Positions 58,897-63,055 are shown, counted from the first letter of the stretch. The stretch is DNA of 64,000 nt from an uncultured Collinsella sp. (GCA_900546455.1 URCS01000001.1:3040-67039); one strand, 5' to 3'. The notes: generated from the sequence alone by a model not told the origin. A program made the numbers and translations.

Positions 58897-59523
58897 TCAT
58901 AAGGACCGGCTATCCCTTACCTGTGACACAATCTCAAACGCACAGAACAGAATCATCAGTCCAATCATCGCATAAGAGGCAGCCGAACCTTCAAGCACTA
59001 TTCCACAAAGAACAATCTCCGCGCCGCCAATAAGAACTGTTATCAGGCGCTCTGCCTTTTTGCTCTCGCCGCTCGCATAAAAAGGCGGCAAAGCGCACAA
59101 GATCACATATAGCCCGGGAAGGGAATACAGGATCGATAGTCCAAGCCCCCCATCAACCGCAGTGTTTTGCGTAAGAATCAACTGAACCCAAACGGCAATT
59201 ATCACTGAGCAGGTTGTCGATAAAAGAAGACTAGAAATATAGCACGCAACAAAGTCCCGTCGCATTCGAACAGAGAAATCCGCGAACTCTCTTCGCCGCG
59301 TGGAAACAATAAGGTACACAGAAATTGCAATAGAACCAATCAGAGAAAACAGCGGAACAACCAGCAATTCAAGCTTATTACCCCATCGATCAACCACACC
59401 CCCACTCCAATGAGCGGGAATTGTATCAGGGAGGACTGACCAAGCCGCCCATAGAATCAGAAATGGAAGAATAGAGAGGATGAAAGATGATAACACTGCA
59501 GTAATTTTTTTTGAGGCTCTCAT
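58897..59523 (-). CDS. SdpI/DUF1648-like polytopic membrane protein (candidate immunity protein)
   Basis: The N-terminal WSVLPDTIPAHWSGGVVDRWGNK matches the DUF1648/SdpI-type motif (lPxxiPxHwxxxGxxDxwGxK). Five or six TM helices. Divergent from the locus B operon. The ATG at 59523 follows AAGGAG. Confidence 0.7.
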   Translation of the reverse strand: MRASKKITAVLSSFILSILPFLILWAAWSVLPDTIPAHWSGGVVDRWGNKLELLVVPLFSLIGSIAISVYLIVSTRRREFADFSVRMRRDFVACYISSLLLSTTCSVIIAVWVQLILTQNTAVDGGLGLSILYSLPGLYVILCALPPFYASGESKKAERLITVLIGGAEIVLCGIVLEGSAASYAMIGLMILFCAFEIVSQVRDSRSL

Positions 59524-59721
59524 CGATTCCGCGTCTCCTTGCGCACCCACATTCCACTCCGCCTTAAATCAAGTATAAATAAAAACTTGAATGCAAGTTT
59601 GTTTTGATTAGTATGGAAACTATATCCATTTAGTTCTAATTTGTTCGTAGTATCAAATCGATACCGACACTAGCATGACGTAGTCTTTCAAGACAGCTAT
59701 TCAACATTGGAGGTCACCGCT

Positions 59722-60447
59722 ATGGACAATGTGAACCACCTAAACGAACTCTCAATACAGTCCCAGCTTAGCATCCTTGAAAAACTGGTCGCGGACGCGG
59801 AACAATCTACCGACGCAAGACGCGATTTCGAAGCTCAGCCTCGTGCCGTATTCCAGAAATATGGAATTACAGACCTCCAAATCAAAGCGGGAAATCGAAA
59901 AGTCTCTCTGTACGAACTGGTGGAGTCAACCGAAAAGGAGGCGCGTGTCCCCGTTGCACGCGCAGTATATCGTCGTATCCAACTTGCATATTATGACGAG
60001 GACAACGAAGCTGAGCCGCAAACGATACCTCTCGTAAACGTTGTACTTAATGCAAACGCAGTAACGAACGCAAACATCATTCTGAACGCAAACGGAATGG
60101 CAAACGCAAACGCGAATGCTCAAAACAACGCCAACCTTAAGTACGACGTCAACACAATGGGCTATGGATCAGCTATTTTTATGAACAAACCTGATGTTGT
60201 TGAACTATCGGAATCGTACAAACAAACTTCTGTTTTCAGGAAATTTGATCAAGAGGGCTTGAGTGCAGCGAGGCAAGCAGCCATGCTTAAAACAGCAATC
60301 AAGAATTCCAGCTCCAATACCATCAACCCCGAAGGGGCTTCCAATGGGGTCGCCCGCGGGTATTATCGCTCCGTCGAATTCGAAGTTACTTACTCCGAGA
60401 ACGAAGGCACCTTGGTAATCACCGACGCCCGTTTGCTCGCGGCATGA
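59722..60447 (+). CDS. NHLP-leader-like protein with internal Asn-rich repeat core (candidate proteusin-type precursor)
   Basis: The ATG at 59722 follows GGAGG. Leader-like LEKLVADAEQSTDARRDFEAQPRAVFQKYGITDLQIKAGNRKVSLYELVESTEKE. Core VNVVLNANAVTNANIILNANGMANANANAQNNANL. A further roughly 100 aa follow at the C-terminus. Its stop overlaps the radical SAM start (ATGA). Confidence 0.6.
   Translation: MDNVNHLNELSIQSQLSILEKLVADAEQSTDARRDFEAQPRAVFQKYGITDLQIKAGNRKVSLYELVESTEKEARVPVARAVYRRIQLAYYDEDNEAEPQTIPLVNVVLNANAVTNANIILNANGMANANANAQNNANLKYDVNTMGYGSAIFMNKPDVVELSESYKQTSVFRKFDQEGLSAARQAAMLKTAIKNSSSNTINPEGASNGVARGYYRSVEFEVTYSENEGTLVITDARLLAA
60046..60117 (+). repeat. Four degenerate 18-nt tandem units encoding x-N-A-N-x-x hexads
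   Basis: cttAATGCAAACgcagta / acgAACGCAAACatcatt / ctgAACGCAAACggaatg / gcaAACGCAAACgcgaat, read directly from the sequence. Confidence 0.8.
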
Positions 60448-61523
60448 TTTCCGAAAGCTCGCAGCACGTGCTGTTCCGCAGACCTCGAATGCTGACATTT
60501 ATAACAACATATAAATGTGGCGCTGTGTGTGATCATTGTCTGATGAGCTGCACTCCGAACAACAGTGACAGGCTTACTCTTCCCCAAATGCGGCAATTCA
60601 TCGATAGCTTCGCCGAAGTATGCGTCGGAAGTGGTGTTGTTGTGTTTACGGGCGGAGAATGCACCCTTCTTGGCGATGACCTTCTCGAGGCCATCGCATA
60701 TGCGAATTCTTTAGGACTCTTTACTCGAATTGTAACGAATGCGTGGTGGGCAAAAAGCGAAAGAGACGCAGAAACGTTCCTCAACGAATTGAAGTCATGT
60801 GGCCTTGACGAAATCAATATCAGCTGCGACGACTTTCATGCGGAATATATACCCCTCGAGAATGTGCGCAACCTTTGGAACTCAGCAAAAACAATGGGCT
60901 TTCAAACTCTCGGCATTGCGGTCTGCAGAGATAACAACAGTACAATCAGCCCGGCATACCTGTGCAAGTACCTTAATGAAGACATTCCACTCCTGCATCA
61001 GTTCGACGATAATACCCAGCCTCCCAGCGCGCCAGCCCGCTTCATCACGGATTCAGGCATCACGCGAATTGGGCGCGCACGAAATCTCAGTCTCAACCAA
61101 AATGCGCGACCGCAGGCACGTCTCTTAGCGTCACACTGTTCCGACTGCGGCCGAGACTTCGTTATTTCCCCAAACTGCCATCTTGCACCCTGCTGCGGAA
61201 TAAATGCAGAGGGAACTTGGCTTTTCGATCTTGGCAAAATCAATCTGACGGATGACATTAATGAACTGCAGCTGCTCCTACTTAATTACATACAATACAT
61301 AGGACCAGGAGGGCTGCTGAAGCACTTGCGCACGAGCGGAGGCCTTTCTTCATTTGGGCGCTCAAGCTACCTCTCTCAATGCGAGATTTGCGAAGACATC
61401 GCCCTCTCGAAAGAGGCACAGACCTGTCTTGCAAAGCTAGCTCCTAAACTGGCAGCCGACTTGATTGTCGAGACTAAATTCGAGACTACCTTTATCGGAA
61501 ATGGGTCTGATATACATGATTGA
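60444..61523 (+). CDS. Radical SAM enzyme with Cys-rich C-terminal (SPASM/twitch-like) domain
   Basis: TYKCGAVCDHC (CX3CX2C). C-terminal HCSDCGRDFVISPNCHLAPCCGI and QCEICEDI...C. Translationally coupled to both neighbours. Confidence 0.9.
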   Translation: MISESSQHVLFRRPRMLTFITTYKCGAVCDHCLMSCTPNNSDRLTLPQMRQFIDSFAEVCVGSGVVVFTGGECTLLGDDLLEAIAYANSLGLFTRIVTNAWWAKSERDAETFLNELKSCGLDEINISCDDFHAEYIPLENVRNLWNSAKTMGFQTLGIAVCRDNNSTISPAYLCKYLNEDIPLLHQFDDNTQPPSAPARFITDSGITRIGRARNLSLNQNARPQARLLASHCSDCGRDFVISPNCHLAPCCGINAEGTWLFDLGKINLTDDINELQLLLLNYIQYIGPGGLLKHLRTSGGLSSFGRSSYLSQCEICEDIALSKEAQTCLAKLAPKLAADLIVETKFETTFIGNGSDIHD

Positions 61524-62658: not shown

Positions 62659-62684
62659 AGCATCCGTCATACGAAAGCAGGTCA

Positions 62685-62722
62685 ATAGGCTGCGCGCCAC
62701 TCTCTGATGACGCGCAGCCTAT
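62685..62722 (+). terminator. Perfect 12-bp stem-loop after the methyltransferase gene (terminator-like)
   Basis: ATAGGCTGCGCG, 14 nt, CGCGCAGCCTAT, then CTCATTTCC. Confidence 0.55.
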
Positions 62723-62925
62723 CTCATTTCCCCCGCGCTTTACCGAGCCCGACTCACACCTCATAGTTGGCACCGGTTTTCAAAATGCAAGATTCCGCAT
62801 ACAAAATCACTTCTTCTGTCTAGGTGGCAGACCTACGATTTTTGTAGTATAAAGTTCCTCTCAATGCCTTCAATCTATTTCGAGATTGAGAAGAACTTGC
62901 ATCGGGTTTCATAGAAGCGATATAG

Positions 62926-63055
62926 ATGATACGTTTTGTCCTATCTATATTCCGACATACATCAGGATGCCTCGTCTTTATCGTCATTTCAATAGTCGGC
63001 TTGGCCCTTTCCCACATTGCCCCCTTTTTGAACGGTAAATTAATTGACTTCCCGC
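62926..63055 (+). pseudogene. N-terminal stump (about 43 codons) of an ABC half-transporter paralogous to 52967..54586
   Basis: IFRHTSGCLVFIVISIVGLALSHIAPFLNGKLIDF aligns with LFRCKGSRLFVILMLVNFALSCVMPALNGGFVDF of the intact exporter. The similarity stops where the sequence turns GC-rich, at about 63055. Confidence 0.55.

Follow-up and report, generated by a model that had tools for sequence, protein, structure and literature searches.

Few ribosomal products are as heavily modified as the polytheonamide-type β-helical peptides, which are potent ion-channel cytotoxins; to our knowledge, they have so far been tied to sponge symbionts, a few proteobacteria and a single epimerase family. For the related aeronamides, the D-Asn Nγ-methyltransferase AerE (PDB: 7RC2-7RC6) methylates epimerised D-Asn only, independently of the leader and with a preference for small neighbouring residues; it employs catalytic Tyr137 and Asp141 together with a metal-binding Asn231, and the methylated D-Asn residues 25, 31, 37 and 43 share one face of the modelled β-helix (PMC9060474). 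The epipeptides of Bacillus subtilis (epeXEPAB, or yydFGHIJ) depend on a different radical S-adenosylmethionine (SAM) enzyme, EpeE (YydG), which contains two [4Fe-4S] clusters and uses a critical cysteine; the proteusin epimerases are not homologous to EpeE and carry instead a recognition element (RRE) for RiPPs, peptides made by the ribosome and modified after translation (PMC8326336). Here we describe a cassette at positions 58897-63055 of a 64,000-nucleotide stretch of DNA from an uncultured Collinsella sp. (the window, to which all coordinates refer unless another locus is named), which a reading of the sequence alone (the sequence-only reading) had taken for a RiPP locus with proteusin logic. 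An AerE-family methyltransferase, homology to a proven peptide epimerase, gene linkage and the register of asparagines in the precursor lend support to that proposal, and none of the computational outcomes that had been named beforehand as refuting it came about; on balance we think it probable that this is a horizontally acquired RiPP-type cassette of Collinsella aerofaciens, which would follow the logic of the channel-forming proteusins with the other known family of radical SAM epimerase.

Three co-oriented genes on the plus strand form the centre of the cassette. The first (59722-60447) encodes a 241-residue precursor protein from an ATG with a GGAGG ribosome-binding site 7 nt 5' of it (the longest open reading frame, or ORF, starts at 59707), and its stop codon overlaps the start of a radical SAM gene (60444-61523, 359 residues) in an ATGA at 60444-60447, as read directly from the sequence. 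The radical SAM gene in turn overlaps by 8 nt (61516-61523) with a methyltransferase gene (61516-62658, 380 residues; longest ORF from 61465), the ATG of which lies inside it. ORF calls, the sequence itself and Pfam matches agree with the sequence-only reading on the coordinates of these genes, on both overlaps and on a membrane-protein gene that diverges from them.

The methyltransferase has the VNPPLLP motif, with NPPL in place of NPPY, and matches the Pfam models MTS and Methyltransf_15 at approximately E 2e-7. When the single sequence is compared with the PDB its best match is AerE (E 1.9e-6), and a profile of 16 family sequences matches AerE at E 2.6e-32 over residues 63-366 of 384, as against 1e-18 for GenN and 8e-10 for HemK/PrmC. 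The AerE residues Tyr137, Asp141 and Asn231 align with Y124, D128 and N217 of the Collinsella enzyme (LY124FGSD128S and VN217PPL), three residues that the family conserves without exception or nearly so. An identity as a housekeeping PrmC/HemK was considered and rejected, the enzyme scoring 44 bits on the PrmC model TIGR03534 (cut-off 199) and 41 bits on the PrmB-type model TIGR03533 (cut-off 230), far below both equivalog cut-offs, while its match to AerE is better by 22 orders of magnitude; its context, a low-GC island, is likewise not that of an ordinary PrmC/PrmB ortholog. The earlier description of a HemK-like N-methyltransferase, right as to class I fold and motif, is imprecise as to family; the enzyme belongs to the AerE/PoyE family, as a predicted Nγ-methyltransferase of (D-)Asn side chains.

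The radical SAM enzyme carries the motif CGAVCDHC and a Cys-rich C-terminal part, both of which had been noticed before, and matches Pfam Radical_SAM at E 5e-8. In NCBIfam the YydG peptide-epimerase model TIGR04078 matches it best (E 2e-27), over the N-terminal half only and at 96.5 bits, which does not reach the equivalog cut-off of 300. YydG is also the sole PDB match of the single sequence (E 1e-13), and with a profile of 24 family sequences the alignment to YydG takes in the full length (10-339 to 29-337) and reaches E 2.6e-31, the second-best PDB match standing at 2.6e-7. Within this family C25, C29 and C32 (CxxxCxxC) are near-invariant and C232, C250, C251, C313 and C316 are invariant (24/24 sequences), and all eight conserved positions align with cysteines of YydG, including a CC pair, one Cys of which is the H-atom donor in EpeE. 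These similarities point to a homolog rather than an ortholog of YydG and to a predicted peptide Cα-epimerase. The parallel previously drawn with PoyD-type epimerases does not hold: the enzyme is of the YydG/EpeE type, with a Cys-rich C-terminal half and no PqqD/RRE match in Pfam or NCBIfam, features that set it apart from PoyD, a single-cluster enzyme with a C-terminal RRE, by description rather than by direct comparison.

The substrate predicted for both enzymes is the central segment of the precursor, residues 104-147 (60031-60162; LVNVVLNANAVTNANIILNANGMANANANAQNNANLKYDVNTMG), which ends at an invariant Gly147 and has conserved P-x-x-N and N-x-x-G boundaries. Asparagine occurs here at positions 106, 110, 112, 116, 118, 122, 124, 128, 130, 132, 136, 138 and 144, all even, and only N135 is odd, so that 13 of the 14 fall in one alternating parity register. 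The segment is built of N-x-N-x-h-x hexads, which give two i+6 stripes of Asn and one stripe of V/I/M in the same register. The pattern extends to the family: in 32 Asn-rich representatives, 347 of 364 core asparagines (95%) lie in a single register, compared with 60% in shuffled cores (maximum 64% in 1000 shuffles), and the opposite register is occupied mainly by Ala, Val and Thr. This agrees with the preference of AerE for small neighbours, and the i+6 stripes agree with that of the aeronamide D-Asn residues (25/31/37/43). Across 51 Collinsella alleles the only change to an in-register Asn is a single N112D, whereas N135 is replaced by T or Y in eight; in the relatives from Bacillus (locus L008) and Chloroflexia (L083), which have no methyltransferase, the cores are hydrophobic and free of Asn. 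The Cys-free, Asn/Ala/Val-rich core that had been proposed is present, with its asparagines confined to one alternating register, and its periodicity suggests the signature of a helix of alternating chirality.

An AlphaFold2 model of the precursor, built with an alignment of 43 sequences, gives high predicted local distance difference test (pLDDT) values for residues 10-95 (87-98) and 155-240 (87-97) and values below 50 for residues 99-150. The whole protein lacks cysteine, and it is predicted to hold a disordered core between two confidently folded domains. The first of these (residues 1-98; 59722-60015) is helical and leader-like, with the motif DARRDFEAQPRAVFQKYGI; the second has an alpha+beta fold and corresponds to DUF5969 (PF19394; residues 160-239; 60199-60438), matched at E 9e-8 and 32.8 bits against a Pfam cut-off of 25, and recognised in 10 of 18 diverse members of the precursor family. 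It had been proposed that the core sits in the middle of a long protein; the core is indeed internal, but the C-terminal third that follows it is a conserved folded domain. Foldseek returned for this domain only non-significant matches of RelE/MqsR/NTF2-like type, at E 0.15 or worse, from which we draw no function, and DUF5969 is mentioned in no paper of the searchable full-text literature. In RefSeq the precursor is labelled 'DUF5969 family protein' and nothing more, and an identical locus reads 'DUF1648 domain-containing protein / DUF5969 family protein / hypothetical protein / methyltransferase'.

Searches for the precursor with a word-indexed method, whether from the single sequence or from an 18-sequence profile, recovered almost exclusively copies from the same species. 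The diversity of the family was instead drawn from loci anchored on the radical SAM gene and from an exhaustive HMMER search, which yielded 77 clusters at 50% identity, mostly of 215-270 residues. The sequence-only reading had assigned the N-terminal domain to the nitrile-hydratase-type leader peptides (NHLP). Some relatives do show sub-threshold matches to NHLP-clan models (NF038399, TIGR04509, TIGR04351 and TIGR03793) on a motif of approximately 30 residues, 'F..DP..vL.e.GlD', the best being NF038399 at E 1.2e-4 and 22 bits against a cut-off of 40, with TIGR03793 at E 0.05. The top PDB matches of the family profile (E 0.009-0.35) are nitrile hydratase alpha (0.009-0.05), a RiPP leader of the SonA/LigA type and an NHLP chimera (approximately 0.3). 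The 241-residue protein itself, however, matches no NHLP or Nif11 model in Pfam at E up to 0.1 or in NCBIfam at E up to 1, and Foldseek found neither a significant neighbour nor a nitrile hydratase or NHLP match for the N-domain, either in a shallow model of pLDDT 59 or in a good one of 78.5. As the NHLP matches are sub-threshold or non-significant throughout, we do not call the leader NHLP; the domain is leader-like, with a possible remote NHLP-clan motif and nothing beyond.

Divergent homologs of the radical SAM enzyme (34-55% identity) occur with the same set of genes: a protein of 200-260 residues, the radical SAM enzyme, an MTS methyltransferase, in most cases an ABC exporter, and a DUF1648 or SdpI gene. 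Twenty-nine distant loci were found in genomes by way of the radical SAM enzyme, from Streptosporangiaceae, Actinosynnema, Cellulomonas, Propionibacteriaceae, Eggerthellaceae, Ruminococcus, Lachnospiraceae, Pseudescherichia, alpha-proteobacteria and Bryobacteraceae among others. The methyltransferase gene lies beside the radical SAM gene in 22 of the 29, and homologs of the precursor, matched by the family profile, adjoin the YydG-like gene in approximately 20. The 241-residue protein is thus linked to radical SAM and methyltransferase genes in many phyla, and the locus, far from being confined to this genome, belongs to a widespread family; since the same genes recur in the same order in divergent loci, the arrangement is more than chance.

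When these genome loci were clustered with others from earlier radical SAM neighbourhoods, 32 non-redundant divergent loci remained. Twelve of them contain between one and three PoyB/C-type RiPP maturation C-methyltransferases of family TIGR03975 (in L007, at 3971-6004 of that locus, 366 bits against a cut-off of 282), approximately nine contain S33/TAP-like serine peptidases and 16 contain ABC exporters. The absence of C-methyltransferase, dehydratase and leader protease, and the truncation of the exporter, had been taken as distinctive; among relatives of the Collinsella copy, however, B12 radical SAM C-methyltransferases, peptidases and intact exporters are found. In L007, L060-L066, L082, L084 and L087, from soil and rumen Actinomycetota and other phyla, the C-methyltransferase genes stand between the precursor and the YydG-like gene, and the cores of these cassettes consist of (G/V/A)ANANA repeats that end in NTNTNG. 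The closest relative outside Collinsella (L004/L005) is a cassette of 47.5% GC within a mobile-element-like context of 65% GC, with all three genes intact and no ABC gene downstream. Two precursor homologs from Acetatifactor/Lachnospiraceae (L071 5071-7941 and L075 5497-7869) are far longer, at 956 and 790 residues; they share the N-domain and an Asn-alternating core, which is followed by Gly-rich repeats, a transmembrane segment and Cys-rich repeats instead of DUF5969, and their modified segment may remain within a large membrane-anchored protein.

The cassette region has a GC content of 46-50%, as against 60-66% in the genome, and occupies the right-hand part of a low-GC block (51.6-63.2 kb) between ppdK (48784-51561) and the gene for the PPDK regulatory kinase (63275-63985); GC rises abruptly past approximately 63055. 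A scan of species-representative genomes identified 50 Collinsella/Coriobacteriaceae genomes, isolates of C. aerofaciens among them, with copies of the radical SAM enzyme that are 97-100% identical, and across these genomes the block 51.6-63.2 kb is collinear at 98-100% identity. Synonymous divergence among the 50 Collinsella representatives is 0.005-0.022 for island genes and 0.26 for the flanking kinase gene; the much lower divergence of the island genes indicates that the island spread recently through Collinsella, by horizontal transfer or a sweep, at a fixed chromosomal site.

The gene that diverges from the precursor operon (58897-59550, minus strand) encodes a polytopic membrane protein of 217 residues. 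Its earlier description as SdpI/DUF1648-like is confirmed for DUF1648 (E 9e-13; 48 bits, cut-off 28.7), while the SdpI domain itself (PF13630), which occurs in the L007 cassette, is not matched in this protein. The cassettes of L001, L003, L004, L006, L007 and L064 likewise include a DUF1648 or SdpI gene, and by analogy with the SdpI/SdpC pair we infer that the 217-residue protein may serve in self-protection (immunity). The AT-rich region between the two divergent genes (59551-59721) presumably contains the promoters of both the membrane-protein gene and the precursor operon; a scan for consensus promoters and terminators gave counts no higher than in shuffled sequence and did not establish promoter positions. 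A second copy of 58234-59981, 98-99% identical, is found in L089 (6604-8260). It comprises the DUF1648 gene in intact form together with the promoter region, breaks off 260 nt into the precursor gene, and adjoins genes for the MobL relaxase, the TraG/VirD4 coupling protein and DnaB_C of a conjugative element. The DUF1648 gene of this copy resembles the orphan immunity genes of bacteriocin systems, and the duplication may account for the breaks at 59.3-59.9 kb in approximately half of the Collinsella contigs.

Set beside the channel-forming proteusins (polytheonamides, PoyA/B/C/D/E; aeronamide, AerA/C/D/E/F/H), the cassette shares an AerE-family Asn Nγ-methyltransferase with its catalytic residues kept, a core in which Asn alternates with small or hydrophobic residues to give i+6 stripes, a radical SAM partner of epimerase type and a long structured N-terminal region of the precursor; its relatives add the PoyB/C-type C-methyltransferases and a serine peptidase. 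It differs in that its radical SAM enzyme is a two-cluster protein of the YydG/EpeE type (approximately 360 residues) without RRE, its leader is not recognisably NHLP/Nif11, its core is internal and followed by the folded DUF5969 domain, C-methyltransferase, dehydratase, hydroxylase and protease are all missing from its Collinsella copy, and it is hosted by Actinomycetota, Firmicutes and others, a human gut commensal among them. With the epipeptides it shares a homologous radical SAM enzyme whose cysteines are conserved over the full length, an expected membrane-acting product and, in relatives, a coupled ABC exporter. However, the precursor is a tripartite protein of 241 residues with an internal core rather than one of 49, the core is striped with Asn whereas the epipeptide is short and has two Val/Ile epimerised, there is an AerE-type methyltransferase, no EpeP-type membrane protease occurs among the island ORFs scanned, and the radical SAM enzyme scores under the equivalog cut-off. 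The likeness to the SdpC/SdpI pair of B. subtilis lies in a DUF1648/SdpI-type membrane protein beside a hydrophobic toxin-like product, and the core of one relative weakly matches the SdpC family (E 6.8e-4); here, by contrast, the membrane protein has DUF1648 only, there is no SdpR-type regulator, and the toxin candidate is unrelated in sequence and would be modified by enzymes. The locus is not a proteusin by definition because its leader is unproven, its epimerase is of another family and its core is internal, and it is not an epipeptide because the precursor, the methyltransferase, the absent protease and the sub-cut-off radical SAM enzyme all differ. We found no description of this combination in the searchable full-text literature, a scope that excludes subscription-only papers.

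We propose that the YydG/EpeE-like enzyme, translationally coupled to the precursor, would epimerise Cα positions in the Asn register to generate an alternating D/L backbone, and that the AerE-like methyltransferase would then N-methylate the side-chain amides of the resulting D-Asn. The modified core of approximately 40-45 residues could fold into a β6.3-type helix of approximately 30 Å with a surface lined by a hydrophobic stripe and two stacked ladders of Asn (i, i+6); such a helix would insert into membranes as a cation channel or toxin, and the divergent DUF1648/SdpI-like membrane protein would protect the producer. A broader proposition, which we advance tentatively and rate somewhat below an even chance, is that the family constitutes a third lineage of ribosomal, D/L-alternating, β-helical channel peptides with N-methyl-Asn ladders, in which a YydG-type enzyme takes the role of PoyD, the core is looped between NHLP-like and DUF5969 domains, mobile elements have spread the genes through Actinomycetota, Firmicutes and Proteobacteria, with a host that ranks among the most prevalent Actinobacteria of the human gut, and the segment is perhaps never excised in the Lachnospiraceae members of 790-956 residues, where it may serve a larger protein as a β-helical membrane segment.

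Several observations weigh against a working pathway of proteusin type. YydG makes only two epimerisations, of a Val and an Ile, in a 49-residue peptide, and we know of no precedent for iterative, alternating epimerisation by its family; with 96.5 bits where 300 mark equivalence, the reaction of the Collinsella enzyme could differ from that of YydG. The precursor has no detectable NHLP/Nif11 leader and has a folded C-domain foreign to proteusins, and the chemistry as a whole is read from homology, linkage and sequence periodicity. The exporter is reduced to a stump in every species-representative Collinsella genome that covers its position. This stump, which the sequence-only reading had recognised, comprises the first ~42 codons of an ABC exporter gene (62926-63051, plus strand) and is followed by the right boundary of the island; in a tblastn search of the 64-kb window alone, its 42 residues align with residues 3-44 of the exporter in the L001 cassette at 38% identity (E 0.002). 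An ABC profile found no ABC ORF after the methyltransferase in eight Collinsella genomes scanned, and the other Collinsella loci that reach this stretch contain no insertion in it. No protease gene was found among those ORFs of 51.6-63.2 kb, a part of the total, that were run through Pfam and NCBIfam. Finally, the precursor is frameshifted or stopped in 7 of 46 genomes, and its ratio of non-synonymous to synonymous polymorphism (pN/pS) is approximately 0.9-1.2, against 0.43-0.44 for the enzymes, values compatible with relaxed constraint; this is weak evidence, because the island spread so recently that pS amounts to only 0.005-0.02.

The deleted exporter, the lack of a protease and the erosion of the precursor gene would make a decaying remnant the strongest of the alternatives, although we still consider it unlikely: the enzymes would perhaps be encoded without any mature secreted product, and DUF1648 would be kept mainly as an orphan immunity gene against other producers. 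Besides the stump, the disrupted precursors and the precursor pN/pS of about 1, it can call on the orphan DUF1648 gene and truncated precursor of the conjugative element, on the deletion variant P0023, in which residue ~105 of the precursor is joined to position 62577, and on the many precursor forms of 162 residues, which derive from the second copy of 58234-59981. Against decay, the radical SAM gene is intact in 49 of 49 genomes, the methyltransferase gene in 46 of 47 and the precursor gene in 39 of 46, the in-register asparagines are conserved across alleles, and the island's spread is so recent that statistics of decay cannot decide the matter. In L004/L005 all three genes are intact even though no ABC gene follows them there either. 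Furthermore, a related ABC transporter of 539 residues (52967-54586) lies 5 kb to the left and shares, along its full length, 35% identity with the exporter of the L001 cassette; it could substitute for the one that was lost. With the exporter a stump and no protease gene found, release and export, if they occur, need other factors; alternatively, the Collinsella product remains associated with the cell or is never matured. This copy is incomplete and may be only partly functional.

A smaller chance falls to minimal modification in the manner of the epipeptides, whereby a few Val/Ile residues are epimerised, the methyltransferase, working on its own, modifies L-Asn or another nucleophile, and the product perturbs membranes without forming a D/L β-helix. 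The homology to YydG, an enzyme of two independent epimerisations, would fit this arrangement, as would the V/I/M at the fifth position of each hexad, which shares the Asn register, and the existence of relatives without a methyltransferase (L008, L078 and L083). What makes it distinctly improbable is that the methyltransferase keeps the catalytic triad that acts on D-Asn, AerE itself leaving the L-peptide unmethylated, that only modification of the register itself would readily account for a register as strict as 95%, and that PoyB/C-type C-methyltransferases co-occur in relatives. We think it very unlikely that the radical SAM enzyme performs another radical reaction, such as crosslinking or C-H functionalisation, in a new class of RiPP unrelated to D-amino-acid helices. 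Such enzyme families often diversify in function, this one scores well under the YydG equivalog cut-off, and a Cys-free core excludes thioethers though not C-C or C-O links; but the eight cysteines shared with YydG, CC pair included, and a partner methyltransferase from a family known to need epimerised Asn speak for epimerisation. That there is no RiPP system at all, only a housekeeping PrmC/PrmB beside an unrelated Asn-rich low-complexity protein, is effectively refuted: generic MTS/HemK-family matches in Pfam and NCBIfam are all that would favour it, and they are outweighed by the HemK/PrmC scores far under cut-off and the far better match to AerE, by translational coupling and co-inheritance of the three genes across phyla, and by a low-GC island devoid of housekeeping context.

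The same low-GC island holds a second, different radical SAM RiPP-like cassette (52281-57332). On the minus strand this comprises a truncated ABC nucleotide-binding fragment (52281-52841), the intact 539-residue ABC exporter described above and a small membrane protein (54668-55066); on the plus strand it comprises a PqqD/RRE-containing protein (~55198-56091), a radical SAM enzyme (56091-57137) and a Val/Ala-rich peptide of 60 residues without family match (57150-57332; MYETPEVEKMDSKTGPVPVVVNFAAVVDNVVAAVYDAVVAAYAFWYSADNDGTGTSAAQN). The possibility that an inversion had divided a single ABC gene into the fragments at 52281-52841 and 62926-63051 was dismissed, as a simple inversion would not leave them in the orientation and positions observed. 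Between the two cassettes, a high-GC spacer (57.5-58.5 kb) contains an ORF of 169 residues without family match (57914-58423, minus strand), and an 18-nt direct repeat (57936-57953 and 58092-58109) forms the ends of a 138-bp indel that sets apart a subset of the Collinsella loci (L045-L050). The whole 11.4-kb low-GC block is flanked by a 24-nt inverted repeat of 92% complementarity (51867-51890 and 63246-63269), the arms of which could be the termini of the island or remnants of the original intergenic region; no tRNA integration site was found in 50-64 kb. One identical locus lies on a sequence labelled 'plasmid 6' (NZ_OY725717.1, L088; 899,693 bp), which nevertheless contains the core housekeeping genes ppdK, glyS, rpsP, trmD and lepB and is probably a piece of chromosome rather than a plasmid.

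If the proposed pathway is correct, end chemistry like that of the polytheonamides would exist in bacteria that abound in the human gut, as well as in many actinomycetes of the soil, and it would be attainable with a non-homologous epimerase, a case of convergent pathway assembly. The cassette would provide a minimal system of three genes in which to ask which modifications suffice for β-helix and channel formation, a question left open by the study of AerE (PMC9060474). It would also assign a function to the Pfam family DUF5969 and to genes that now stand under generic annotation names.

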